Source of the DNA: Escherichia phage phiEcoM-GJ1 | Length of the DNA stretch: 52,975 nt | Strand: one strand, 5' to 3' | Sequence record: NC_010106.1 | Shown here: in pieces, positions 655 to 42,002 of the stretch | How the letters are laid out: each line of letters starts with the position of its first letter | How positions within the stretch are numbered: the first letter of the stretch is position 1 | Translations under genes and position numbers: made by a program | The notes under the pieces: generated by a model | Told to the model about the DNA's origin: nothing | The model's input: the letters and a program-made list of their open reading frames with translations, nothing else | Database searches by the model: none

Positions 655-2601
655 ATGACTACTATCACCACTCAAACTATCAAATCCGTTGTTCCTGCTA
701 TCACTGCTCTGGTATACCGTGCCAAAGAGAAACAGAACTATATGCAGCCTCAGACTTGTGCTATTGCTGCCTTAGCCATCTTCAAGATGATGACCTCTTT
801 CACTCGTGATGATGTTATCCCAGCCATTGCAATGGTTGAACTGGCTTCTGCTTCTATTGCTGATGCCAACCGTTATAACAACGACCTGAAAGCAATGCAC
901 TATGTTGACCCAGCTATCAACCTGATTGGTCTGGCTAAGCACTTTGGCTTCATCACCATGAACGAAGACAAATCGTTCCAGATGACTGATGCATGGATTG
1001 AACTGGTTACAACCAAAGATACCTCAGTTCCATTCACTGAGAAGGTAACAACTGAATCTCGTCGCAAGCCTTTCGTCAAAGGTGGCAAAGTTAAGCCATC
1101 CAAGACTCTGAAAGCTGCAATCGAATTCCTGCAAGATACTGCATATCACGTTGATGCTACAATGGTTAAGGTTATCTCTTCCATGATTGAGCAACGTACT
1201 TATGGTGGCTTGCAGATGCCAGAGGCAATCCAGACTGAACTCCATGTTTGGAACAATGCTGTAGCAATGGTTGGTCAGGACACTCTGTTCTCTGACTACT
1301 TTGCTGATAACCGTGGTCGTCTGTATCATGTTGCTTGTGCTGGTCCTAACCCACAATCATCTGACTTTGCTCGTTGCTTGTATTCCCACAATGTTGAGAA
1401 CACTGTGAGCAAGTTTAATGATGATGGTTCAACAACTCTGGCATACAACATGTTCATGCTTGAGCTGGAAGATATTGCTGGTGGAGACTGGACTTCTGCT
1501 AAACGTTTAACTTATGTTGCACAGAATCCTGTTGGTTCTTTGGCTCGTATGATGAACATGGACAAATCTGAACGTCCTTCTAAGCCATTCACTTATGTTC
1601 GATTAGCTCTGGATTGGTTCAAGTTTGAGACTACTGGTGAGTGCGATTCTCGCGTAGGCTTTGGCTTAGATGCTAAATGTTCTGGTACTCAATATCTGGC
1701 ATTCATTGCTGGTAACATGGAAATGGCTCGTGCAACAGGTCTGGTTGATTCTGAGACTAAGGCATCTGACCCATACCAGTTATCTCTTCGTGAACTGTTA
1801 AAGTTATTAGACCGTTCTTCAATGAAACCATCTCCTGAAATTATGGATGAATTCTTGAATCCGAAAGCTGGTCGTAAGTTTATCAAAACTCCATACATGG
1901 CTATCCAATATGGTGGTGGTAAAGCTGCATTAACTGGTTCTTCTGACTTTATCTCCTACATGACAGAAGCTCTCCAGATTCCTATGGAGAAAGCTGAGGC
2001 ATTTGCTGAACTGTGTGTAGAAGCAATCCATAACGCATTGGGTGAGAAGATTAACATGTTCATCGAGAAAGCTGCTGATGCTGCATACACTCGTTGTGTT
2101 GAACTTGGTAAAGAGTATATCACATATAAGCACACTGATGGCCAAGTTGTAATGAAGCCTTGCTTCCCATCTCGTGACATTTGTGATGCTTTCTCCATTC
2201 GCATTGATTCAGCAACTCGTGTAATCTTTGGCGTAATGTTGGAGGGTGAAGAGAAACCTTGGACCATTCGTGAGTCCAATCCAACTAAAGAAGAATTCAA
2301 ACGTACCTTCGTTGTTAACTACATTCAAGGTATTGATGCATTGGTTGCTCGTACTGTTGCAATCAAAGCTAAAGAAGCTGGTCTTCGTGGCTTTACTTCA
2401 ATTCACGATTGTTTCCGTTGCTGCTTAGCTGATGCTCCTCTCATGATGGAAGTAATTCGTTCTGCTTATATTGAAATCTTTGTTAATAATAATCAGTTTG
2501 AATCTCTGTCTAAGCAACTTGGTGGCATCAACATGTATCACGAGAACATCGTAACAGAAGAGCTTCTGATGAGCGAACACGCTTACTACTTCTGTCAATA
2601 A
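655..2601 (+). CDS. single-subunit T7-like DNA-dependent RNA polymerase, compact form
   Basis: 648-aa ORF with GGAG RBS; palm motifs in T7 RNAP order: GLDAKCSGTQ (motif A-like), KTPYMAIQYGGG (motif B-like), SIHDCFR (motif C-like); about 200 aa shorter at the N-terminus than T7 RNAP. Confidence 0.85.
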   Translation: MTTITTQTIKSVVPAITALVYRAKEKQNYMQPQTCAIAALAIFKMMTSFTRDDVIPAIAMVELASASIADANRYNNDLKAMHYVDPAINLIGLAKHFGFITMNEDKSFQMTDAWIELVTTKDTSVPFTEKVTTESRRKPFVKGGKVKPSKTLKAAIEFLQDTAYHVDATMVKVISSMIEQRTYGGLQMPEAIQTELHVWNNAVAMVGQDTLFSDYFADNRGRLYHVACAGPNPQSSDFARCLYSHNVENTVSKFNDDGSTTLAYNMFMLELEDIAGGDWTSAKRLTYVAQNPVGSLARMMNMDKSERPSKPFTYVRLALDWFKFETTGECDSRVGFGLDAKCSGTQYLAFIAGNMEMARATGLVDSETKASDPYQLSLRELLKLLDRSSMKPSPEIMDEFLNPKAGRKFIKTPYMAIQYGGGKAALTGSSDFISYMTEALQIPMEKAEAFAELCVEAIHNALGEKINMFIEKAADAAYTRCVELGKEYITYKHTDGQVVMKPCFPSRDICDAFSIRIDSATRVIFGVMLEGEEKPWTIRESNPTKEEFKRTFVVNYIQGIDALVARTVAIKAKEAGLRGFTSIHDCFRCCLADAPLMMEVIRSAYIEIFVNNNQFESLSKQLGGINMYHENIVTEELLMSEHAYYFCQ

Positions 2602-2889: not shown

Positions 2890-3849
2890 CGATATTCGAC
2901 ATTAGTTGGATGTGAAGTAACAGAATACGGAGAAGTATTACTCACGTTGTTCGTGGGTTTCCGCATGTCATGTTGAAATCATTCTAGAAACATTTCAGCA
3001 TGTCAACTAAACACACAGCGTTGTAATGATGTGGCAATCATTGAACTCCCTGTCTTTGGCCGGACAAAGTTCCAGCAACCATGTGTGAAGTAGGATTATC
3101 ATTCGAAACTGTTCTTCCGGTGTTGAACTAACAACAGAACATCGTGTTAGCCATCTTGATTAAGTTACAAGAAAGTCAACAAACCTAAGCATGTTCACTT
3201 GTTTCAATATTGCTCCATCTCCTATTATCAAGGCCCACCCACAAGCCGGGAGATAACTTTGGCAAGACTGGAACTTTTGGACATGCTTCTTTCTTTCAAT
3301 CAGAATTCGAAAGAAGAGAAGAGTCGGAGCAAAGCCGCGAAACTAATCCCGTAGCCCGCCCCGATTTTGAGCAACAAATATTGTGACAATTGCGTCGCAG
3401 TATGGCATGTAAATATTGCTACAAATTGGCATGTTGGAATGTGGCAGAATTGTTAGAGGACTAATCACCTCGAAGATACAATCGTCTACCAATCTGGCAT
3501 GTTAATTTTGTAACAGTATTTGTGCCAATTTCGCATGTAATAAATGTATCAATATTCACCCAATATTCTTGCAACCCGCATGAATACTGGCTTCCAGCCA
3601 AGCGAAGGCTTTATCATCGCATGTAATATTGTGACAATATTGGGATAAAACCCCTTTATTTATTTCTGTAGTTTTGTATTAAATGGACGGTTTTCCGTAC
3701 CTGTTGCGCCACTTCTTGATGTGCCAAATACATTCCAAGATAGGAGCAAACCTGTAATTAATGATGCATGTTTAATTGTGACAAAATTCGTCTATTTGGC
3801 AGATGAGTTAGTTGCAATTAAGCATGTTCATTTATCATTAGTTGCATGT
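2874..3849. repeat. array of about 12 GCATGT-containing degenerate direct repeats in a ~1.1-kb ORF-free region
   Basis: GCATGT at 2874, 2963, 2998, 3189, 3405, 3429, 3497, 3533, 3619, 3766, 3822, 3844, mostly followed by A/T-rich (T)AAT(A/T)TTGT; second palindrome AATATTGTGACAATATT at 3625-3641. Confidence 0.55.
2899..2919 (+). promoter_or_regulatory. conserved motif ACATTAGTTGGATGTGAAG (candidate phage-RNAP promoter)
   Basis: Near-consensus copy; core ATTAGTTGGATGTGA. Confidence 0.45.
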
Positions 3850-3855
3850 GAATAA
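3835..3855 (+). promoter_or_regulatory. conserved motif copy ATTAGTTGCATGTGAATAAG
   Basis: About 190 bp upstream of the first small early gene at 4046. Confidence 0.45.
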
Positions 3856-6721: not shown

Positions 6722-7005
6722 ACAAGAATTCGATTTTACGTTATGTTGGTGAAACTAATTATTACTTCACCAAAGGTAAGAAATACAAGGTCGTCGCTGG
6801 TCGTGGTGACGGTGTTCCTCGCAACAATGGTACACTCGGTGCGTATATTCAATCTCATTTGGGTTTTGTCGTTAATGATGATAACCGCAATTTATCTTAT
6901 CGTACATTCTCCAATTTGTGGGAGCTTGTGAAAGATTCTGGCGAAGTAAGTTGGTACAAGCCTGAATCAAGTATTGACCCTATTCCTATTTCCAAGTCGA
7001 TGTAA
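6718..7005 (+). CDS. hypothetical protein
   Basis: 95-aa ORF overlapping the previous stop. Confidence 0.5.
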   Translation: MNKNSILRYVGETNYYFTKGKKYKVVAGRGDGVPRNNGTLGAYIQSHLGFVVNDDNRNLSYRTFSNLWELVKDSGEVSWYKPESSIDPIPISKSM

Positions 7006-7045
7006 ATTAACAAGGAGCATTCATTGAGTGTTCCTGATTAATTCA

Positions 7046-7066
7046 ACATTAGTTGGATGTGAGAGA
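7046..7066 (+). promoter_or_regulatory. conserved motif ACATTAGTTGGATGTGAGAG (candidate phage-RNAP promoter)
   Basis: 88 bp upstream of the 7136 gene. Confidence 0.45.
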
Positions 7067-7135: not shown

Positions 7136-7516
7136 ATGGCACAATATTCAGACGTAAACACTGGCATCATCGGTTCCAATGGCTTCAAGAAAGACCCAAA
7201 ACATCCTGACGTTCGTGGACGTATTAACGTTGACGGAATCTGGTATTGGGTGTCTGGTTGGAACAAGCAAGCCAATGGTAATGAATTTACCTCGCTGGCA
7301 CTCACCATCATGACTCAAGAACAAGTTGATGAAATGATGCGTAAGCGTGAAGAGAAAGCTAAAGCCAAAGCTCAACCTCAAGCCGCCGCACAACAGCAAC
7401 GTCAGCAACCTTCTGCTGCACAGCAACAGCAAGCACCTACTCAACAGCAAGCTCCGCAGTCGTCTGGGTATAACCCAAATGAGCCGCAGGACTTTGACTC
7501 AGACATACCTTTCTAA
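7136..7516 (+). CDS. small protein with Q/A-rich linker and SSB-like C-terminal tip DFDSDIPF
   Basis: 126-aa ORF; the last 8 residues match the conserved acidic tail ending in IPF of bacterial SSB (E. coli SSB ends DFDDDIPF); the N-terminal ~70 aa are Trp-rich (IWYWVSGW). Confidence 0.6.
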   Translation: MAQYSDVNTGIIGSNGFKKDPKHPDVRGRINVDGIWYWVSGWNKQANGNEFTSLALTIMTQEQVDEMMRKREEKAKAKAQPQAAAQQQRQQPSAAQQQQAPTQQQAPQSSGYNPNEPQDFDSDIPF

Positions 7517-7637
7517 TTGGAGATGCCCTATGAAAATTTTATGTTTTATAGGGCTACATAATTGGGAAATTTCACATGAAAACGATTATGTAACCTTTTG
7601 GGTGTGCAGACACTGTTCAGCAATGCGTGAGGAATAT

Positions 7638-8328
7638 CATGGCAAATAGATTTGTTGAAATACCTGCCAATTTGGTCAAACCTGGTGATGTATTGGTTTA
7701 CGGCAACAGAGAATACCGGATTGAAAACATCCTACGGTTTAGTGATGCAGTTCAGTTGCAATATTCTGGTGGGTACTACAATTTTGAATTTGGCCGCATA
7801 GTCAAAGTGCTCGACAGGCCACCAGCTTTGGAAACTCCAACAGCAACATTCAACACACAGATAACACCAGTATTTCTTCCTTACGGGGAAGCAGTGAAAC
7901 CATTCTCAGATGAAGAGGATGTTAAAGGTGCTGATGTGGAAGTTGGCGATGTTATCTGGTTTAAGGGTAATTGGGCAACTGTTACAAATGTGTACAAGCA
8001 TCCAAATTCGCCATACAATAAAGTCAATATTGACCATGATGGTGTAAAAGGTTTGCAAGTGCGCCTGACATTAACTGGAACTTATTCGAGAAAGGTAAGA
8101 GCAGTAATGGAAACATTAAATATTCAAAATGCAATCGAAGCACAACGTATTCTTCTGCAAAAGCTGGAGCAAATGTTGGAATTAACCCAGCTTGCACCAA
8201 CAGGAGATGGCAAGATTGCAATTGGCAACTGTAACATTCGCGTGGACAAGGCATCAATCACTAAAGCCGCACGCGATGAAATGAAAGCTGCCGCAAGCAA
8301 ATCCGCAGAGCTTATCAAGAAGCTGTAA
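7638..8328 (+). CDS. hypothetical protein
   Basis: Long ORF; start chosen at ATG 7638 (MANRFVEI...) after GAGG. Confidence 0.55.
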
Positions 8329-10497: not shown

Positions 10498-10518
10498 ACA
10501 TTAGTGGGATTTGATTCT
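10498..10518 (+). promoter_or_regulatory. conserved motif copy ACATTAGTGGGATTTGATT (variant)
   Basis: Shares the upstream TCTGAAAC with the copies at 10639 and 13124. Confidence 0.35.
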
Positions 10519-10638: not shown

Positions 10639-10659
10639 ACATTAGTTGGAATTGAAGAA
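10639..10659 (+). promoter_or_regulatory. conserved motif copy ACATTAGTTGGAATTGAAG
   Basis: Second copy in the same ORF-free 600-bp interval. Confidence 0.4.
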
Positions 10660-13123: not shown

Positions 13124-13144
13124 ACATTAGTTGGATGTGGAAAG
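13124..13144 (+). promoter_or_regulatory. conserved motif ACATTAGTTGGATGTGGAAAG (candidate phage-RNAP promoter)
   Basis: 93 bp upstream of the codon-optimised 13219 gene. Confidence 0.45.
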
Positions 13145-14455: not shown

Positions 14456-14550
14456 GGACGAGTAGCTCAGAAGGTTTGCATTGTGCTCAGTCAGGTAGAG
14501 CAATCTGTTCGACAGATGTGTCGTTGGTTCGAATCCAACCTTGTCCGCCA
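14456..14550 (+). tRNA. tRNA-like element, non-canonical (possible degenerate or interrupted tRNA)
   Basis: Acceptor stem GGACGAG/CTTGTCC (one G-U), T-arm GTTGG-TTCGAAT-CCAAC, discriminator G plus CCA; TAGCTCAG and TCAGGTAGAGC D-arm halves are separated by a 20-nt insertion that duplicates GCTCAG; the anticodon-arm region forms a hairpin with only a 5-nt loop, so no anticodon can be assigned. Confidence 0.35.
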
Positions 14551-16314: not shown

Positions 16315-16965
16315 ATGATTACTGCAACACTCGTTGACCACATGGGCAGCGACCTCACAACTGTTAATGCTGCACGAGCTTCTTATGGTGCAGAGTCCCA
16401 TGAGATGACATTGCGCGACGAAAAGCTCATTGAATTTCTCGCAAGGCATAAGCACAATACACCTTTTGCCCATGCGTATGTAACATTACGCTGCACTGCA
16501 CCAATCTTTGTTGCACGCCAACTGGGTAAGCACCAGGTGGGCTTTCGTTGGAACGAAGTTAGCCGTCGTTACAAAGATGGCGAAGCAATCGAAATTGAAT
16601 GCTTTGTACCTGATGTGGTGTTTGGTCGTCCTGAAAAGTTGATGACTCAGACTGCACAACCATTGCCACAGGATTTTGCTGACGATATTCACTATCGCAT
16701 GGAAATCCACAACAAGGCTTGCATTGCAGAGTATGAAACGTTAATTGGTTTGGGGATTGCTCCAGAGCAAGCCCGAATGGTGTTGCCACAATCCATGATG
16801 ACTACATGGATTTGGACTGGCTCTTTACTGGGCTGGGCTAATATGTACAAGCAACGCTCTACAGAGCACGCCCAATATGAGGCACGTTTGTTTGCAGAAG
16901 AAGTTAATAAAATTATGTCAGAACTATTTCCGGTTTGCTGGAAGGCTTTGACTAATCAGGAATAA
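16315..16965 (+). CDS. thyX: ThyX-like flavin-dependent thymidylate synthase homolog with non-canonical signature
   Basis: Resembles ThyX across the N-terminal half (HxxTPFxHxxxTxxxxAPIFVARQ...S-RY); the position of the canonical RHR-x7-S signature reads KHQ-x8-S. Confidence 0.75.
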   Translation: MITATLVDHMGSDLTTVNAARASYGAESHEMTLRDEKLIEFLARHKHNTPFAHAYVTLRCTAPIFVARQLGKHQVGFRWNEVSRRYKDGEAIEIECFVPDVVFGRPEKLMTQTAQPLPQDFADDIHYRMEIHNKACIAEYETLIGLGIAPEQARMVLPQSMMTTWIWTGSLLGWANMYKQRSTEHAQYEARLFAEEVNKIMSELFPVCWKALTNQE

Positions 16966-16985: not shown

Positions 16986-17429
16986 ATGAAGCTAGCCAAA
17001 AGCTATATATATAAGGTCGCCAGCACCCGAACACTTACTTGGACCCTCAATGGTAAAGGTTATTTGTCTGCAACCATGCGATATAATAATCACAAATATA
17101 CTATTTATAAACATGTCCTAGTATTCTTTATTCATAATGGGTACGTTCCAGAAGAGGTTGACCACATTGATGGCAACACATTGAATAATGAACCGAGCAA
17201 CCTCAGAGACTCTACTCGCTCGCAAAATTGCAGCAACAGGAAAGTGTTCTCTAATAACGCTCTCGGTGTAAAAGGCGTCCGTAAAGTAGGTAACTCTTAC
17301 CAGGTAAGAGTCTGCCACAACGGTAAGACAACGTATATGAGGGCTTCTTCACTGGAAGAGGCCCAAATTATGTCCAAAAGAATAAGGCAATCTCTGCACA
17401 AGGAGTTCGCCAACGAAGGTAAAATCTAA
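16986..17429 (+). CDS. HNH-AP2 homing endonuclease (copy 1 of 3)
   Basis: HNH core HVLVFFIHNGYVPEEVDHIDGNTLNNEPSNLR followed by an AP2-type DNA-binding segment GVKGVRKVGNSYQVRV...; GGAGG RBS. Confidence 0.8.
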   Translation: MKLAKSYIYKVASTRTLTWTLNGKGYLSATMRYNNHKYTIYKHVLVFFIHNGYVPEEVDHIDGNTLNNEPSNLRDSTRSQNCSNRKVFSNNALGVKGVRKVGNSYQVRVCHNGKTTYMRASSLEEAQIMSKRIRQSLHKEFANEGKI

Positions 17430-19192
17430 TGAATATTAAACAATGCGTCGCGAAGATAAAGCACGATGTACCTGGTTGTAAATCTACGTCTGGAAAATCT
17501 TTGCAAGTTTGGGTTAATACAGACGAATCTGGAAACACATCATATTCTGGATTTTGCTTTGCATGTGGTGTTCTTGTTCCAAATCCATATGGAACAGATG
17601 CAGAGAAGTTTCCCGAAGTCCATATCAAGACGCCAGAAGAGATTCAGGCAGAGGTGGATGAAATAACATCTTGCCCTCCACTTGATTTGGACCACAGAGG
17701 CATAGAGCCTGAGTTTTGGAAGGCTGCTGGTGTGAGGCTGTTGTATTCTGAATACGACGGGAAAACGCCCAACGCATTGGCTCACGGGTATACCAAGAAT
17801 GGTAAACTTGTACGTTGGAAAATCAAATTACTAAATAAGAAGGTTATGTGGTCAGTTGGGGATACTCAAGATAATGACCCATATAACTTTATGGCTGCGA
17901 AGGCCATTGGAGGTAAGACATTATTCATTACCGAAGGTGAAGAAGATTGTATTGCTCTCCGTCAAATCCTTAAAACAATGAATCGTGGCAGTGCTTATGA
18001 AGACCTCGACTTTGCTGTTATTAGCTTAAGTGATGGCAGTAGCTCTGTGCATAAATGCCTTTCTCGTGTTGCAGAAGAAATCAAGCAACGTTGGGAGCAG
18101 GTTGTTATCGTATTTGATGACGATGAACCTGGACGTAAAGCTGCCAAAGAAGCGTGTCGATTGTTGCCTGGTGCAATGATTGCAACACTTCCAGCTAACG
18201 ATGCTAACGATTGTTTGAAGCGTGGCTTGCTCAAAGCTACTCAATCTGCTGTTGTGTTCCGTGCTGCCCGTCCTCTTCCTACAGCACTTGTCAACAAAGA
18301 ACTTCTTATGGAAGAGCTTGATGATGAGGTTGAGCAGGGTGTGGATTATCCTTGGCCCAAGTTAACCGACTTAATGTTTGGTCAACGTCGAGCCGAAGTT
18401 ATTACAATCGGTGGTGCAGAAGGTGGTGGTAAAACTACCTTGTCCCGTCAGATTGTGCATCACAACATTACCAAGCACGATTGGGGAGTGTTTACTGCAT
18501 ACATGGAGGAAACTCCTACAGAAACACTGCGCCGAATGGCTGGCCTTAATGACAACTTGCCATATTGGGAACCTGCGTTTACTCGTGAAGACCCTCGATA
18601 TGATGAAGCTAAGTTCCGTCAAACTGCTGCGAAGATGCTTCGTAACATGGAGATTTGGGACCGCAAGCAAGCTGGAGAAGACCCTTATGAAACCTGGGAT
18701 GGGTTAAAGACGATTCTTCGTCAGATTGGACCAGACATTGATATGTTTGTCCTTGATAACTTAACCTACTTATCGGAAGGGATTTCTGCCTCAGAGAAGA
18801 ACGACTTCTTAGGTAAGCTGTATGCAGATATTACTAAGCTGGCAGACCAATACCAGTTCCATGTGAATATCTTGTCGCACCTCAACCCTGTGGCAAAAGG
18901 TCAGCGACCTCATGAAGATGGCGGACGAATCAAGAAGTCAGACTTTACTGGCTCTCGTGCTGCTGCTAAATATTCTCATGGTATGTTTGGCTTTGAGCGT
19001 AATAGCCAGGCAGTTGACCCAAACTGTTCTATTATTCGTTCCATCAAAGCTCGTAAGAGTGGTAAAACAGAAGGCTTCAAGACGTATTATGACACCGAAT
19101 CTGGTCGAATTATTCAACGTTCTTGGGATGACTCTCTGTTCGAAACTAAAGAGATTGTTCAACTTACTAAGAAGAACGGTCCACACCAATAA
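17429..19192 (+). CDS. DNA primase/helicase (T7 gp4-like)
   Basis: N-terminal Cys cluster (CFACG), TOPRIM motifs FITEGEEDCIAL and IVFDDDEPGRKAA, Walker A GGAEGGGKTT, Walker B-like MFVLDNL. Confidence 0.9.
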   Translation: MNIKQCVAKIKHDVPGCKSTSGKSLQVWVNTDESGNTSYSGFCFACGVLVPNPYGTDAEKFPEVHIKTPEEIQAEVDEITSCPPLDLDHRGIEPEFWKAAGVRLLYSEYDGKTPNALAHGYTKNGKLVRWKIKLLNKKVMWSVGDTQDNDPYNFMAAKAIGGKTLFITEGEEDCIALRQILKTMNRGSAYEDLDFAVISLSDGSSSVHKCLSRVAEEIKQRWEQVVIVFDDDEPGRKAAKEACRLLPGAMIATLPANDANDCLKRGLLKATQSAVVFRAARPLPTALVNKELLMEELDDEVEQGVDYPWPKLTDLMFGQRRAEVITIGGAEGGGKTTLSRQIVHHNITKHDWGVFTAYMEETPTETLRRMAGLNDNLPYWEPAFTREDPRYDEAKFRQTAAKMLRNMEIWDRKQAGEDPYETWDGLKTILRQIGPDIDMFVLDNLTYLSEGISASEKNDFLGKLYADITKLADQYQFHVNILSHLNPVAKGQRPHEDGGRIKKSDFTGSRAAAKYSHGMFGFERNSQAVDPNCSIIRSIKARKSGKTEGFKTYYDTESGRIIQRSWDDSLFETKEIVQLTKKNGPHQ

Positions 19193-19253: not shown

Positions 19254-19739
19254 ATGTCCGATGAACAAAAGATTTCTCTGTGGCGAAGTATGTTTTCCTA
19301 CACAGAGGATGGTAAACTTTACAGGAAGATGGAGTCCGGCAAGTTGAAACTTGTTGGTAGCCCTTGTGGACGAGATAAACTCTATCTTAATGTGCGTGTC
19401 GGGAAGTCATTCGAGTACGTGCACCGGATTATCTTTGGGATGCACTATGGATTCTTGCCAAAGCAAGTTGACCATAAGGTGGGATTTGATAACTCACCAA
19501 GCAATCTTCGTGCGGCAGACAACCAACAGAACAATTGCAACGTTGTCAGAAAACTTGGCGCAGTGCCTTTCAGAGGCGTATCCAGAATGAAGAATGGTAC
19601 GTTTGTAGCCAGGATAAGAAACGGAAATTCGAGGATATACATTGGGACTTTCCCAACTGCCAAACAGGCTGCTTTAGCATACAACGAATTTGCAATAAAA
19701 CTCCACGGAGAGTTTGCGATAATCAATAGGAACATATAA
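19254..19739 (+). CDS. HNH-AP2 homing endonuclease (copy 2 of 3)
   Basis: HRIIFGMHYGFLPKQVDHKVGFDNSPSNLR ... GVSRMKNGTFVARIRNG; inserted between primase-helicase and DNA polymerase. Confidence 0.8.
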   Translation: MSDEQKISLWRSMFSYTEDGKLYRKMESGKLKLVGSPCGRDKLYLNVRVGKSFEYVHRIIFGMHYGFLPKQVDHKVGFDNSPSNLRAADNQQNNCNVVRKLGAVPFRGVSRMKNGTFVARIRNGNSRIYIGTFPTAKQAALAYNEFAIKLHGEFAIINRNI

Positions 19740-21673
19740 TGCTCTATCCTTGGGAAAATATGTATGCCAGTGACATTGAAACAACTGGCCTGTTGGAGCA
19801 AATGCGCAAGCAAGCTGCACCACGTCTTCACAACATCGGATATATTGATGTTCTGACTCGTGAAGAAACTGTAATAGAGTGGACCGACAGAAAGTCTATC
19901 CAGGCATTTCTGGATACAGGCCCAACATTAATCATGCACAACGGCGCAACCTTTGACTTTGAGGCACTGAGGTTCCTGGGCTACGACGTTTCAAAATGTA
20001 CACTAATTGATACTTTGTTTATCAGTTGGTATCTGCAACCTCGTCGTGTTAAGCACGGCTTAGAAGGTTACGGCGAAGAGTTTGGTGTGCCAAAACCAGT
20101 CATTGAAGATTGGGAAAATCAAACTCAAGAAGAGTACAACCATCGTGTGATGGAAGACTGCAAGATTCAGTTGAAGCTGTGGGAACAGCAATACATTCAA
20201 CTCTTGAAGATTTATAAATCTCCTAGCGAAGTTAAACGCTTCGTTGAATACCTGATGACAAAAGCTCGTCAACAAGTTATTCAACAACGTACTCGCTGGA
20301 AGCTGAACATTGAGAAGGCATTGGCATTTAAGGCCAAGCTGGAACCAATGATTAAAGAGAAGACCGACGCATTGGAAGCATCAATGCCGCGTATTCCAGA
20401 ATATGTAATCAAGACCCGTCCAGCCAAATGCCACAAAATGAACGGACAATTGTCTGCCACTGGTATTAAGTGGAAAGCTGTTTGTGATGCAAACGGTTTA
20501 GACTGGAAAGACCCAGACTTAGCTATCAAAGTCCTGAAGGGTTATAAGGAACCAAACGCTGGTTCTCACGTACAGATTAAAGATTGGCTGTTTAGCTTAG
20601 GCTGGGAGCCAGAAACATTTAAGTTTGACCGCAATAAGGAAACAGGTGAGACTCGCCAGATTCCTCAAATCACTGTGAAGGATGAAGATGGCAATCCTGA
20701 AATATGTCCAAGCCTCCATAAGTTGGCAGAAAGAAACCCCGAATCTGGTATTCAACATCTTATTGGGATGGGCGTGTATAAACACCGTCTCTCTGTTGTT
20801 AATGGTTTTCTTCGCGACGTCGATGAAGACGGATACCTTACTGCACGATGCGGTGGCCTTACCAATACTTTACGCCTTAAACACCGCGAACTTGTTAACC
20901 TCCCTTCTATTCGTGTATTTGGCGGTGAAGAACTTCGTTCAATGCTGGAAGCGTGGCGCGAAGACTACGAACAGTTAGGTTCTGACTTGTGTTCCCTGGA
21001 AGACCGTTGTAAGCACCACTTCCAATGGATGTATGACCCTGAATACGTTAAGAAGCAGTTGGCACCAGACTATGATGCTCACCTTGCAATCGGCGTAATT
21101 GGTGGATTTATTACCGAACAGGAATCTCAGGACCACAAGGACGGAATTAAGAAGTGTAAACAACGTCCAATGTTTAAGACCACAAACTATGCTTGTCAGT
21201 ATGGTGCTGGTGTACCAACTGTAGCTCGTTCTGCGGGCTGTGACCAGACTACTGCTGCACGACTGCATAAAGCATATTGGGACTTGAACTGGTCTATCAA
21301 AGAGATTGCTGCGAACACCAAAGTTATCACAGTTGATGGTCAGATGTGGCAACAGAATCCAGTAAACAAGTTCTGGTATTCGTTGCGTACAGAGAAAGAC
21401 CGCTTCTCCACATTGTGTCAGGGCACTGGTGCATATGTGTTTGATATTTGGTGTAACAACATCATTGCAATTTGTAATGAACGTTGGGGATGTGACCCGC
21501 TTCTGTCTGGACAATTCCACGATGAATTGATTCTCCAGGTTAAGAAAGGCTTCCGAGATTTGTGGACGGACTTACTTAATGAAGCAATGGACCGAACCAA
21601 CAAAGAACTTAAACTCAATCGTGATTGTGCATGTGATGTACAATTTGGCGATAACTACGCAGAGATTCACTAA
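19739..21673 (+). CDS. family A DNA polymerase (T7 gp5-like) with 3'-5' exonuclease domain
   Basis: Exo I motif YASDIETTGL; polymerase motif A-like DLCSLEDR, motif B KTTNYACQYGAG, motif C QFHDELIL. Confidence 0.9.
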   Translation: MLYPWENMYASDIETTGLLEQMRKQAAPRLHNIGYIDVLTREETVIEWTDRKSIQAFLDTGPTLIMHNGATFDFEALRFLGYDVSKCTLIDTLFISWYLQPRRVKHGLEGYGEEFGVPKPVIEDWENQTQEEYNHRVMEDCKIQLKLWEQQYIQLLKIYKSPSEVKRFVEYLMTKARQQVIQQRTRWKLNIEKALAFKAKLEPMIKEKTDALEASMPRIPEYVIKTRPAKCHKMNGQLSATGIKWKAVCDANGLDWKDPDLAIKVLKGYKEPNAGSHVQIKDWLFSLGWEPETFKFDRNKETGETRQIPQITVKDEDGNPEICPSLHKLAERNPESGIQHLIGMGVYKHRLSVVNGFLRDVDEDGYLTARCGGLTNTLRLKHRELVNLPSIRVFGGEELRSMLEAWREDYEQLGSDLCSLEDRCKHHFQWMYDPEYVKKQLAPDYDAHLAIGVIGGFITEQESQDHKDGIKKCKQRPMFKTTNYACQYGAGVPTVARSAGCDQTTAARLHKAYWDLNWSIKEIAANTKVITVDGQMWQQNPVNKFWYSLRTEKDRFSTLCQGTGAYVFDIWCNNIIAICNERWGCDPLLSGQFHDELILQVKKGFRDLWTDLLNEAMDRTNKELKLNRDCACDVQFGDNYAEIH

Positions 21674-21945
21674 TGCAAACTGTATATTCCATCTTTGATA
21701 TGCAAGAGTCAGAGCACCATATGTTTGCCACTGATTCCGAAGTTCCTTCAAAGGACGCTGTAATTGCGTTCCTTGAAAAGATTAAGGACAAAGTTTTCGC
21801 TTCGTCCGACCCACAGTCTCAAGCATTTAACGATGAGACATTTAAAAGCCTCCAAACTTTAATTTCGGCAACGTCTTCATTTGAAGAGCTGTCCGAAGCA
21901 TTAGTTGGATATGACTTCCGACTTGCTATGTTGCAGGTCGACTAA
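21673..21945 (+). CDS. hypothetical protein
   Basis: 90-aa ORF overlapping the polymerase stop (TAATG). Confidence 0.55.
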   Translation: MQTVYSIFDMQESEHHMFATDSEVPSKDAVIAFLEKIKDKVFASSDPQSQAFNDETFKSLQTLISATSSFEELSEALVGYDFRLAMLQVD

Positions 21946-22852: not shown

Positions 22853-22877
22853 GGCTCCTTCGGGAGCCTTTAATTTT
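22853..22877 (+). terminator. intrinsic terminator
   Basis: GGCTCC-TTCG-GGAGCC hairpin followed by TTTAATTTT. Confidence 0.65.
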
Positions 22878-23913
22878 GGAGCTTACCAAAGTGAGTAAGA
22901 AACGAGTTTTGTTGCTGGTTGACGGCGACATGGTTGCATTCAGTCACTGTGCTGCTGAGGAATACGGCAAAGATTCAGAAGATATTAACTTTGCTAAGAT
23001 TCAAATGTCAATGGATTCCAAGATGGAATTCCTTGCGAAACGTGTAGGAGCTACAGAAGTAGTTACCTGCATTTCACCATCCAAAACATTCCGTAATGTT
23101 CTTGCCGAGAATTACAAAGGCAATCGTGATGATGTTTGGCGACCAGAAAACTTGAAGAATGCGAAAGCACATCTTATGGTTGCCTGGAATGGCGTATGGA
23201 TGAAAGGTCTGGAAGCAGATGACCTCCTTGCCGTATTCGCACGTCATGAATACGAAATGACAATGGGTAAACGTAATGAGATTAAGAGCCTCAAGCGCAT
23301 TGGTCCTTGCACATATGATGAAGTCTGGATTGCGTCGCTGGACAAAGACTTGCGACAAATCGGGCAGAATGGTGGTGCTGGTCCGGTAATTAAACATTAC
23401 CAATGGGAACGAGAAACCCAGGGTATTGGTGAGAAGGTTGTAACTCCAAAGGATTACGGCGAACTCAAACTAATCATCAAGGATAATGGCAAAACGAAGA
23501 AGAAAGAAGTTAAAGGCAATGGCCCTAAATTCTTCCTGCATCAATTGCTTATTGGTGACTCAACGGATAACGTTATGGGTTGCGGAGTTCTTGAAGAAAG
23601 AATCTACAAAACTGGTGCCAAAGCTGGAGAAGCTTATTTCCGTCGTGATGGCATTGGTGCAGTTGCTTCATTCGAAATGCTGGATGGTACAACCTCCTAT
23701 GCAGAAGGTTTGAAGAAAGTTATTGGTGCATATATTATGCGCTTCGGGGATGGTTGGGAACAAGAGCTGCTCAAAGTGGGCCGTCTTGTTTACATGCACC
23801 ATCAAATTGAAAAGGGCAATTGTGTTCGCCTGTGGCATTACAAGAACATTAACGAATACTTTGACCTTAAAGAGAATCGTATCCTCACTCAAGAAGAGTA
23901 CCTCCAGAAATAA
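22876..23913 (+). CDS. 5'-3' exonuclease / flap endonuclease (FEN family)
   Basis: LLLVDGDMVAF and GDSTDNVMG match the conserved FEN/PolI 5'-nuclease acidic clusters; start uncertain (TTG 22876 or GTG 22891). Confidence 0.75.
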   Translation: MELTKVSKKRVLLLVDGDMVAFSHCAAEEYGKDSEDINFAKIQMSMDSKMEFLAKRVGATEVVTCISPSKTFRNVLAENYKGNRDDVWRPENLKNAKAHLMVAWNGVWMKGLEADDLLAVFARHEYEMTMGKRNEIKSLKRIGPCTYDEVWIASLDKDLRQIGQNGGAGPVIKHYQWERETQGIGEKVVTPKDYGELKLIIKDNGKTKKKEVKGNGPKFFLHQLLIGDSTDNVMGCGVLEERIYKTGAKAGEAYFRRDGIGAVASFEMLDGTTSYAEGLKKVIGAYIMRFGDGWEQELLKVGRLVYMHHQIEKGNCVRLWHYKNINEYFDLKENRILTQEEYLQK

Positions 23914-23924
23914 TTGGAGTTGGA

Positions 23925-24449
23925 ATGGCTTACGGTTATTGTGGAACGGAAGCCAAGTTTGTATCTTGGCTCCAATCTGCTATTCGAAGTGTTTGGTCTA
24001 AACACCCAAGCAAACTTGCGCTGATACAATCTCGACGCATTGCATTGAAGGTTGGTGACTCAAAGAAACCAATCTTCCACATTCAATGCTACCATTGCAA
24101 GAAGTTGTATAAGCTCAAAGATATTGAAGTAAACCACAAAGTTCAAGTTGGTGGCCTTCTTAAGTTGGAAGACCTGCACCGCTTTGTGGACAACCTTTTA
24201 CTGGTTCAGCCAGAAGATTTGGAATTGCTGTGTAAAGATTGTCACGGCATTATTACATACATGGAGCGATATGGTGTATCACGTCGTGATGCAGTCATTG
24301 AGAAGAAGTGTATCGCATTTGCCAAATTGTCTGACGAAGAGCAAATTGCCAAGTGCAATCTTGCTAAAATAGAGCCAGTTCCTAAAACCAAAATCGGACG
24401 CAAGAATGCTGTTCGAGAATACCTGAGAAAGAATCTTAATGTCTATTAA
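23925..24449 (+). CDS. HNH/endonuclease VII-like Zn-binding nuclease (possible junction resolvase)
   Basis: CYHCKK ... EVNHK ... CKDCH pattern; GGAG RBS; lies in the replication/recombination module. Confidence 0.55.
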   Translation: MAYGYCGTEAKFVSWLQSAIRSVWSKHPSKLALIQSRRIALKVGDSKKPIFHIQCYHCKKLYKLKDIEVNHKVQVGGLLKLEDLHRFVDNLLLVQPEDLELLCKDCHGIITYMERYGVSRRDAVIEKKCIAFAKLSDEEQIAKCNLAKIEPVPKTKIGRKNAVREYLRKNLNVY

Positions 24450-25194
24450 GCTCCTCGATGATGGTACAAGATACACAAAGGCTCACGCACATGATTGGGA
24501 AGACCCAGACTGCCGAATCAAAGGGCGCTGTGAACTCTTCATCAAGATTGACGGAATTCGAGCTATCCGTAATAAATCAGGTAGTGTCTGGAGTCGTAAT
24601 TCCAAACCCCTACCTCATTTGGACCACTTACAGTTCAGAGATGCTGAGATATTCCGTAATAGTTGGAATGAGACTTCTAGCATCCTCGGACGTATTGACC
24701 CACCAAGCATCCCTCTAACCCAGGACAATGTGTATGAGTTGAGCGATGGTGCTGTTGACCCACGCCTGTACATCGGCTGGTGCAAAGACCCAAGCAATGA
24801 AAACCTTAAGGCATTGATGGATAAATATCTGGCGCTTGGTCATGAAGGTATCATTGTCCGTGATGCAAAAGGTAAATGGTGGAAGATTGTACCATATAAA
24901 TATGCCGATGTGAAGATTACTGGTATGAAAGAAGGTACTGGTGCTCTTAAAGGTATGTGTGGTTCTATCTCCTCGAACTACGGCAGTGCTGGCTCAATGG
25001 TGAAAGATTGTCTGGCAGACCACGGCATTCCAGAATCTAACACATTGATTCGTAAGTGGTTGTGGGAACATCGCCACGAGCTAATTGGTTCGATTATGCA
25101 AGTTCGATATCGTGAGAAGACAGAAGCTGGCAAATTCCGCTTCCCTTCTTTGGTTCGCCTTCGTACAGACAAGAGTGAGGAAAGTTTTGATTAA
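24439..25194 (+). CDS. ATP-dependent DNA ligase (small)
   Basis: Adenylation motif I KIDGIR; C-terminal FPSLVRLRTDK resembles ligase motif VI; 251 aa. Confidence 0.75.
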   Translation: MSIKLLDDGTRYTKAHAHDWEDPDCRIKGRCELFIKIDGIRAIRNKSGSVWSRNSKPLPHLDHLQFRDAEIFRNSWNETSSILGRIDPPSIPLTQDNVYELSDGAVDPRLYIGWCKDPSNENLKALMDKYLALGHEGIIVRDAKGKWWKIVPYKYADVKITGMKEGTGALKGMCGSISSNYGSAGSMVKDCLADHGIPESNTLIRKWLWEHRHELIGSIMQVRYREKTEAGKFRFPSLVRLRTDKSEESFD

Positions 25195-25815: not shown

Positions 25816-26415
25816 ATGTCTTGCATGACCCAAGTTGTTGCAGTTAAACGAGTGCATCCTAATGCGAAATTACCTGTGTACGCTACTGCTGGCGCTGCTG
25901 CTGCTGACGTTTGCACTATCTCCGATAGCACTGTTGTCATCAATCCCGGCTGCTCTGCTGTTTTCGATACTGGCCTCCAATTCGAGATTCCAATTGGATA
26001 CGAACTCAAAGTACATAGCCGTTCTGGTCATGGCTTTAAGTCTGGCATTCGCCTGGCAAACTGCACAGGAATTCTGGACTCCGATTATCGTGGCAATCTT
26101 ATGGTTAAGCTGCACAACGACTCGGACACAGCCTTTGTGGTTCAGCCAGGTGAACGTATTTGTCAGGTGCAAGTTAGTAAAGCTACTCAACACCATTTCG
26201 TTGAAGTTGACCGCTTGAATGCAACTGGTCGTGGTGAGGGTGGCTTTGGCTCAACTGGTCGTGTGGAACTTGGTCAACATGAAAGACCACACATTCCTGA
26301 TGGTTCACACTCGCACAGCATCTCTATTGTTGGTGATGGCGGTGTGAAAGTGTCTTTGCCAGGTACTGTTGAAATCACTGGTTCCCACACCCATGGGGCC
26401 GAACGTTACAAATAA
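25816..26415 (+). CDS. dut: dUTPase (trimeric type) with ~50-aa C-terminal His-box extension
   Basis: Motifs HSRSGHGFK, GILDSDYRGN, GERICQ, RGEGGFGSTGR in canonical order; extra C-terminal GSHSHSISIVGDGGVKVSLPGTVEITGSHTHGAERYK. Confidence 0.85.
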   Translation: MSCMTQVVAVKRVHPNAKLPVYATAGAAAADVCTISDSTVVINPGCSAVFDTGLQFEIPIGYELKVHSRSGHGFKSGIRLANCTGILDSDYRGNLMVKLHNDSDTAFVVQPGERICQVQVSKATQHHFVEVDRLNATGRGEGGFGSTGRVELGQHERPHIPDGSHSHSISIVGDGGVKVSLPGTVEITGSHTHGAERYK

Positions 26416-26817: not shown

Positions 26818-27003
26818 ATGCGCACAATACAATGTCCTAACTGCCATTATGAAATTGCAGAAGATGATTTCATAACGCAGCAATGTCCTATCTGTGATTC
26901 ATACATGCCACTAAACCGCCTGTATTTAAAGGCCGATTCTGGTTTAGGCAGCATCATTCGCATCAATCCCGTGCAAACTCAGCCATTAGTGGATTGTGAT
27001 TAA
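26818..27003 (+). CDS. zinc-ribbon small protein
   Basis: CPNCHYEI ... CPICDSYM: two CxxC pairs; 61 aa. Confidence 0.5.
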   Translation: MRTIQCPNCHYEIAEDDFITQQCPICDSYMPLNRLYLKADSGLGSIIRINPVQTQPLVDCD

Positions 27004-41981: not shown

Positions 41982-42002
41982 ACATTAGTTGAATATGTAT
42001 TA
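41982..42002 (+). promoter_or_regulatory. conserved motif copy AACATTAGTTGAATATGTA
   Basis: Only copy in the late region; 40 bp upstream of the first baseplate gene, directly after a terminator. Confidence 0.4.

Follow-up and report, generated by a model that had tools for sequence, protein, structure and literature searches.

The gene considered here lies at 7136-7516 of the genome of Escherichia phage phiEcoM-GJ1 (sequence record NC_010106.1; 52,975 nucleotides, the whole of which was analysed and is referred to as the window), and it encodes a small protein (MAQYSDVNTGIIGSNGFKKDPKHPDVRGRINVDGIWYWVSGWNKQANGNEFTSLALTIMTQEQVDEMMRKREEKAKAKAQPQAAAQQQRQQPSAAQQQQAPTQQQAPQSSGYNPNEPQDFDSDIPF) whose C-terminus is of the type found in bacterial SSB (single-stranded DNA-binding protein). 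The phage belongs to the family Chaseviridae, genus Carltongylesvirus (phiEcoM-GJ1, ST32, SA91KD), and the window is 87-94% identical to many Carltongylesvirus genomes across 3 kb. The gene is no discovery as such, since the SSB label has stood in the GenBank records of related phages for years. We suggest that it probably encodes the phage's own single-stranded DNA (ssDNA)-binding protein, but one that appears from its sequence to be built unlike bacterial SSB. The features of the locus and the genes of the window to which we refer are collected in Table 1.

The gene is preceded by a terminator-like hairpin that closes a block of small early genes; the equivalent site in phage SA91KD is annotated as a rho-independent terminator. 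The initial annotation had drawn attention to a conserved motif 88 bp upstream of the gene. This motif, CATTAGTTGGATGTGA, situated 89 nt before the ATG, proved to be a promoter for the phage RNA polymerase, and it is identical to the annotated phiEcoM-GJ1-type phage promoter of SA91KD. Its core occurs 11 times in the window when up to three mismatches are allowed (0.63 copies expected), ten times on the plus strand (572-587, 2900-2915, 3836-3851, 7047-7062, 10499-10514, 10640-10655, 13125-13140, 21899-21914, 26984-26999 and 41983-41998) and once on the minus strand (2275-2290). Because the promoter is present and a terminator-type hairpin lies just upstream of it, the SSB-like gene opens its own phage-polymerase transcription unit, and it should therefore be transcribed once the phage polymerase has been made. 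The ribosome-binding element upstream of the start codon is also given for ORF19 of phage ST32, an SSB-annotated relative (PMC6266442). A further open reading frame (ORF) of 39 codons (7530-7649; MKILCFIGLHNWEISHENDYVTFWVCRHCSAMREEYHGK) begins 14 nt past the stop codon and possesses its own GGAG; its product contains Cys/His residues and is conserved as phiEcoM-GJ1 gp16 / SA91KD_20, while Pfam gave no match to it.

Table 1. Features of the SSB-like gene, its upstream region and other genes of the window
Feature	Position	Strand	Remarks
Single-subunit phage RNA polymerase gene	655-2601		PF00940
Terminator-like hairpin	7005-7043	+	RNA fold -15.8 kcal/mol, z = -5.3 against shuffles
Promoter of the phage single-subunit RNA polymerase	7043-7062	+	core CATTAGTTGGATGTGA at 7047-7062
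Ribosome-binding region AAGAGAA	7121-7127	+	purine-rich; 8 nt before ATG; read from the sequence
Coding sequence of the SSB-like protein	7136-7516	+	126 residues; ATG start; stop codon 7514-7516; from the ORF list
Proposed ssDNA-binding module, residues 1-60	7136-7315	+	conserved four-stranded antiparallel beta domain (predicted)
Amphipathic helix, residues 61-79	7316-7372	+	confined to the Chaseviridae-type subclade
Intrinsically disordered Gln/Ala/Pro-rich linker, residues 80-118	7373-7489	+	pLDDT <50, composition, variability
Acidic tip DFDSDIPF, residues 119-126	7490-7513	+	type of the bacterial SSB C-terminus
ThyX	16315-16965
Primase-helicase	17429-19192
Family A DNA polymerase (Pol A)	19739-21673
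5'-3' exonuclease	22876-23913
Ligase	24439-25194
dUTPase	25816-26415

The SSB-type tail

The protein ends in NEPQDFDSDIPF (a longer C-terminal stretch reads GYNPNEPQDFDSDIPF). The initial annotation had recognized the tip motif of bacterial SSB in its last residues, and this holds: DFDSDIPF is identical to the DFDDDIPF of Escherichia coli SSB at seven of eight positions, and the likeness reaches upstream of the tip (NEP-Q-DFDSDIPF versus NEPPMDFDDDIPF). When E. coli SSB was compared with the whole window by tblastn, its sole match covered 7373-7513 (E 2e-4), and a tblastn search of the window with the OB (oligonucleotide/oligosaccharide-binding) domain of that protein alone gave no match. The Gln/Ala-rich nature of the linker, likewise claimed at the outset, is borne out by 15 Gln, 7 Ala and 4 Pro among the 33 residues 80-112; the full-length AlphaFold2 model assigns the linker a predicted local distance difference test (pLDDT) value below 50, so that it is predicted to be disordered.

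Close homologues of the protein number 45; among the contigs that carry them, all those above 50 kb have lengths of 51-55 kb. Among 25 aligned homologues the N-terminal ~75 residues are conserved and the linker varies in both length and sequence, and four of the eight tip positions (F120, D121, P125, F126) are invariant. Since these residues do not change while the linker varies freely, the tail is not a chance match. The window protein hence shares with bacterial SSB (E. coli Ssb; PF00436, TIGR00621) a disordered linker of the Gly/Gln/Pro type, a preceding NEP and an acidic tip of the form (D/E)-x-I-P-F that ends in DIPF; in contrast to it, the protein is 126 rather than 178 residues long, and no OB-fold domain was found in it. 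Bacterial SSB wraps ssDNA as a homotetramer, and SSB tails are the hub by which bacterial proteins of replication, repair and recombination find ssDNA.

Predicted fold of the N-terminal domain

The N-terminus had been described as Trp-rich, and its first 60 residues indeed hold three Trp, two Tyr and two Phe residues. AlphaFold2 was run twice, first on the full-length protein with 25 homologues, and then on residues 1-77 with 67 diverse family sequences. Both runs returned the same topology, with strands at residues 9-14, 26-32, 35-46 and 49-58/59, followed by a helix that starts at residue 61 (61-79 in the full-length model, 61-76 in the domain model). The OB fold that the initial annotation had proposed to look for by structure prediction did not emerge; the models consist of a four-stranded antiparallel sheet plus a helix, and contain no five-stranded OB barrel. 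The domain reached a pLDDT of ~90 in the full-length run, and the domain run gave a pLDDT of 93.5 overall and a predicted template modelling score (pTM) of 0.74.

One may ask whether the protein is nevertheless a highly diverged canonical SSB, whose OB fold is closed by dimerisation or strand exchange and is missed by a monomer model and by profiles. Such a view would accord with the linker and the tip, whose resemblance to bacterial SSB includes NEP..DFDxDIPF, with the short match to the Shiga toxin 2 B subunit given below, and with the existence of relatives with tandem domains, in which two units may form one globule. We nonetheless regard it as improbable: Pfam SSB has no match in the protein, hhalign assigned a probability of 0.15% to the comparison of the family with the OB domain of E. 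coli SSB, and the two independent AlphaFold2 runs agree on the four-strand-plus-helix topology.

The structural matches of the model point elsewhere, although their scores are marginal. Borrelia Pur-alpha (4.4), human Pur-alpha (4.3), the Whirly protein StWhy2 (4.3) and the PC4 homologue of phage T5 (4bg7; 4.2) were recovered, with YdbC and MoSub1 further down the list, and the top 60 matches contained neither an SSB nor another nucleic-acid-binding OB-fold protein. The set of PC4-like folds that we considered comprises the C-terminal domain of human PC4, the T5 PC4 homologue, BPSL1147 (5a4n), YdbC (2ltd), Pur-alpha and Whirly. The Pur-alpha, Whirly and PC4 group has been reviewed as "PC4-like" beta-beta-beta-beta-alpha binders of ssDNA or RNA (PMC7549692), and this topology is matched by the predicted model for the window protein and its subclade only.

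When the family profile was aligned to a PC4 alignment with hhalign, a probability of 75.7% and a score of 31.5 were obtained, as compared with 12-13 for reversed profiles and a maximum of 20.7 among 30 column-shuffled controls. We do not claim homology to PC4 from this score, even though it exceeds the controls, because the alignment places the beta2-turn-beta3 hairpin of the family on one PC4 stretch, which we take to be a single continuous strand. Furthermore, the helix, which in the PC4-like fold is a conserved part of a helix-swapped dimer, is not a conserved element of the family: about half of its members lack it, with columns 61-65 gapped in ~48-52% of the 67 sequences and gaps commoner still past position 65. 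A non-OB fold of the PC4-like type is thus the best assignment available for the domain, and we consider the chances for and against it to be about even; it is unproven in view of the marginal structural scores, the hairpin-on-strand alignment and the subclade-specific helix.

Because successive side chains of a strand point to alternate sides, R27, R29, W38, S40, W42, K44, F51 and S53 are expected on one face of the predicted sheet; the hydrophobic residues of the beta domain fall on the opposite face. Such a conserved aromatic and basic face would be the pattern expected of a surface that stacks on bases and binds phosphates.

Other searches contributed little to the assignment. With the whole protein, the Pfam matches (PAT1, HSP70 and others) were confined to the Gln-rich linker and of low complexity; none reached the cut-off, and they were discarded. 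When the PDB was searched by sequence, LptE and designed helical proteins came up via the linker and the helix, and E. coli SSB via the tail only. The only match of a profile search of the PDB, an 18-residue beta-hairpin of the Shiga toxin 2 B subunit (E 0.027), was treated as chance; this subunit is presumably an OB-fold protein. The structure search of BFVD yielded nothing beyond the family itself, namely uncharacterised members and one protein with the label SSB.

The wider family and its genomic company

A profile of the domain alone retrieved, at E values up to 1e-3, 2,045 representatives from a collection of 1.84 billion sequences clustered at 50% identity, and ~7,551 clusters of a 90%-identity collection carry the domain. 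The family proteins are 60-200 residues long, and their consensus is YDNTNxGxLFxNxxKxxxxHPDxxGxxNVxGxxYWxSGWxK....G..FxSL. G10, G28, G34 and W42 are invariant across the family, and Y37, W38, K18, K44, F51 and S53 are strongly conserved. An acidic tip of the form ...[ILVMF]PF, most commonly DDDIPF, DDSIPF or DSDIPF, stands at the end of 83 out of 148 top representatives; for the best-scoring clusters the count is 95 of 116 (82%). On account of these proportions, we take the coupling of the domain to an SSB-type tail to be ancient and to define the family. P0046, a protein of 1,158 residues with 21 repeats, also scored highly against the profile and was set aside as what looks like a repeat artefact.

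Two tandem copies of the ~55-residue beta unit are present in about 19 of 147 top representatives; helices are absent both between and behind the copies, and a single tip follows. These relatives suggest, at the level of sequence, that the working unit may be a pair of beta modules. Natural "covalent dimers" of this kind include P0058, P0062, P0069, P0075, P0077, P0102, P0107, P0110, P0136, P0168 and P0189, among others. The tandem-domain protein p31 of Vibrio phage phiVC8 (L015, 5001-5516) is peculiar in that its annotated coding sequence extends 14 residues beyond ...DFDDDIPF, so that the tip is internal, whereas the near-identical P0069 terminates exactly at DIPF; the extension could stem from read-through, from an error in sequencing or from the annotation.

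No Pfam model exists for this domain family, and a profile search of the PDB found no solved structure that matches it by sequence. The sole Pfam family that recurs among the weak matches is DUF736 (PF05284), seen in 14 of 67 members with a best E value of 0.001; its gathering threshold was not reached (19.1 bits for the best relative versus 22.1), and the window protein itself has no match to it. JGI labels some family members "DUF736 family", and we found no function for DUF736 in the literature.

PHROG 7364, named "single strand DNA binding protein", matches the window protein with an E value of 6.7e-46, and phrog_18154 does so with 6.5e-15; it should be noted that the PHROG name is itself an annotation. 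Remote family members match both of these PHROGs as well. In relatives of the window phage the gene is annotated as "single-stranded DNA-binding protein", and the domain is present in 133 phage records, nearly all annotated ones of which say SSB.

Phage SSB genes are normally found beside recombinase or exonuclease genes, and the same company is kept by remote members of the family. The neighbourhoods of eight such members (83-91 residues) were inspected. An SSB-type tip is present in seven of them (...PF in six, DIPW in one), and P0222 terminates in DDPLPF. A recombinase or exonuclease gene lies adjacent or one gene away in seven of the eight cases: an Erf gene stands directly before the family member, often overlapping it, in four, whereas single members are located one gene past a Sak-type annealing protein (SSAP_Sak), one gene past a Sak4-like AAA_24 ATPase, and, in a Bordetella prophage, immediately behind a YqaJ exonuclease. 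The remaining neighbourhood was uninformative. Two gene strings on metagenomic temperate-phage contigs (L003, 5333-7027; L009, 4267-5255) read Erf, family member (its start overlapping the Erf stop), DUF968 and NinB, and are candidates for compact recombineering modules.

A different setting is found in the Salmonella phage PMBT28 (L014, 5001-5342), whose family member ends in NEPPMDFDDDIPF, and in phiVC8. In both of these 2-aminoadenine phages, the replication modules of which encode PurZ-type adenylosuccinate synthetases, the family member is placed among genes for helicase, Pol A and PurZ. A preprint reports that co-expression of "PMBT28 helicase and SSB" raises the incorporation of the modified base dZ; this SSB may be the family member of PMBT28.

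In the window, the primase-helicase, Pol A, the 5'-3' exonuclease and the ligase form a T7-like replication set. The SSB-like gene is set apart, ~9 kb before this module, and yet it is the sole SSB candidate; no second one was found by PHROG and Pfam scans of the unassigned ORFs of the replication region, in the annotation of SA91KD or by tblastn.

Several observations on the window stand apart from the SSB-like gene. ORFs for HNH endonucleases at 16986-17429 and 19254-19739 (PHROG 99, E 8e-39 and 5e-44) flank the primase-helicase gene on both sides and look like homing endonucleases inserted into the replication module. A stretch of 2.5 kb (~13.6-16.1 kb) has no ORF of at least 90 codons on either strand, and is nearly unannotated in SA91KD too; a 95-nt gene for tRNA-Leu(CAG) is located within it (14456-14550). 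The record PP952070.1, "Staphylococcus phage Pel53" with the stated host Staphylococcus hyicus, is ~90% identical to the window phage over 3 kb, and its Staphylococcus host label looks doubtful.

Function, competing explanations and significance

The suggestion of the initial annotation that the protein is a minimal phage SSB finds comparative support in the match to PHROG 7364, the annotation of relatives, the conserved order of domain, linker and tip, the gene neighbourhoods and the absence from the window of any other SSB candidate. We infer binding to ssDNA, an oligomeric state and partners of the tip along the following lines. The ~60-residue, four-stranded beta domain, supplemented by one helix in the clade of the window protein, would bind ssDNA, probably as a dimer or a higher oligomer, through a proposed face made up of the aromatic residues W38, W42 and F51 and the basic residues R27, R29 and K44. 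With this face of its oligomerised beta modules, the protein would coat the ssDNA that arises from the T7-like replisome of the phage. The flexible linker would present the tip DFDSDIPF, which copies the peptide used by host SSB for docking, and thereby recruit proteins that possess a pocket for the SSB tip; candidates for such partners are the T7-like DNA polymerase and primase-helicase of the phage, by analogy to T7 gp2.5, and SSB-interacting proteins of the host.

In T7, gp2.5 is the SSB of the replication module, and the polymerase and helicase of that phage dock on its acidic C-terminal tail, the last residue of which is Phe. An acidic tail with a final Phe and a T7-like replication module, with matching genes in the window, are what the two systems have in common (gp2.5 was considered together with the Enc34 ORF6 / DUF2815 type). 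No sequence similarity between the window protein and gp2.5 was detected. The gp2.5 protein is a modified OB fold of 232 residues, as opposed to the ~60-residue and predicted non-OB domain of the window protein, and the tail of the latter copies the host SSB tip rather than that of gp2.5. A parallel for the role of the tip comes from the SSB of phage HK620, which is encoded beside Sak4 and stimulates it only with its last six residues, NDYPPF (PMC5928155). Remote family members hold the same genomic position as this SSB, a distant homologue of bacterial SSB with a monomer of 21.3 kDa that behaves as ~95 kDa in gel filtration (PMC5928155); the window family differs from it in size (80-130 residues) and in having an unrelated domain.

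Several points weigh against a role as ssDNA-binding protein. A domain of 60 residues may on its own bind ssDNA only weakly unless it is oligomerised. The NCBIfam SSB models reach 20-23 bits with the protein versus cut-offs of 54 and 260 (TIGR00621, 20.5 bits versus 53.95), and they align to residues 40/42-126, a stretch that is mostly linker and tail; the existing SSB label thus appears to rest on the tail. The placement of the family hairpin in the PC4 alignment, described above, belongs here as well, as does the absence from most remote relatives of the helix by which the PC4-like fold is defined, and neither biochemical nor genetic work on the protein or its family was found in the searchable literature.

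A different explanation takes the tip itself as the active principle. Without useful ssDNA binding by the protein, its abundant tips would titrate ExoI, RecQ, RecJ, PriA and chi away from host SSB, and this would cripple host repair or replication, or protect the ends of the phage DNA. Outside the domain, no other short element is conserved as strictly as the tip, the gene is situated in the early, host-takeover part of the genome behind a strong phage promoter, and for another SSB-like phage protein, whose tip reads FDDDIPF, interference with ExoI has been suggested (bioRxiv 10.64898/2026.04.29.721553). The N-terminal domain, however, is conserved at least as much as the tip and carries its conserved aromatic and basic residues on one predicted face; the neighbours of relatives are annealing proteins and polymerases, for which a partner bound to ssDNA is necessary; and the T7-like replisome of the window would be left with no SSB candidate at all. 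The conservation pattern of the domain and the gene neighbourhoods hence make a pure decoy unlikely, and a decoy effect could equally be the by-product of a genuine SSB. Because the tip copies that of the host, SSB-interacting proteins of the host could be recruited or titrated, and the protein could serve as an SSB while, incidentally, also competing with host SSB.

Very unlikely, finally, is a cofactor of transcription or recombination, i.e., a PC4-like binder of ssDNA or melted DNA that aids the phage RNA polymerase or an annealing protein and uses its tail as an adaptor: in remote relatives the partner is an Erf, Sak or Sak4 recombinase, but neither the window nor its annotated relative SA91KD was seen to contain an Erf, RecT, Sak or Sak4 gene, the genes of PMBT28 and phiVC8 are embedded in the polymerase/helicase module, the similarity to PC4 is weak, and support of recombination is a normal task of an SSB, so that this explanation differs from an ssDNA-binding protein of the phage mainly in emphasis.

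We return to the latter as the preferred explanation, and extend it, more tentatively and with slightly less than an even chance of being right, to the family as a whole. Its members would then form a large and structurally distinct class of "mini-SSBs" (2,000 representatives or more at 50% identity), in which a four-stranded non-OB beta module of ~55 residues, possibly an offshoot of the PC4/Pur/Whirly superfamily, binds ssDNA as a dimer or a tandem and carries a tip of the host type. Phage SSBs with acidic tails are already known, and so is a PC4-like protein of phage T5 that is linked to recombination-dependent DNA replication. New, as far as we can tell, are the predicted non-OB fold of the putative DNA-binding part, the very large size of a family that has neither a Pfam model nor a solved structure, the SSB tip as a family-wide feature, and the finding that remote members systematically partner phage recombinases. 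A non-OB DNA-binding module of 60 residues that carries a tail of the host type would, to our knowledge, be smaller than any other natural SSB design.

Phage SSBs set how portable recombineering systems are, and phage SSB-like proteins elicit a response from some defence systems. An example of the latter is Bas52_0087, by which the DRT10 defence system is triggered (bioRxiv 10.64898/2026.04.29.721553); unlike the window protein, this SSB-like phage protein exceeds 350 residues and has two predicted OB folds. Were the window protein unable to bind ssDNA, a wrong SSB label would stand in the 133 matching phage records. If it does bind ssDNA, this compact protein would be a tool for recombineering and for in vitro replication systems, allow a clean test of the share that the tail has in SSB function, and offer a functional lead for DUF736, the proteins of which would also become candidate ssDNA binders if the mini-SSB class is real. 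The family is abundant in phages and prophages, and with such a class phages would gain a minimal protein that plugs into the SSB interaction network of their hosts.
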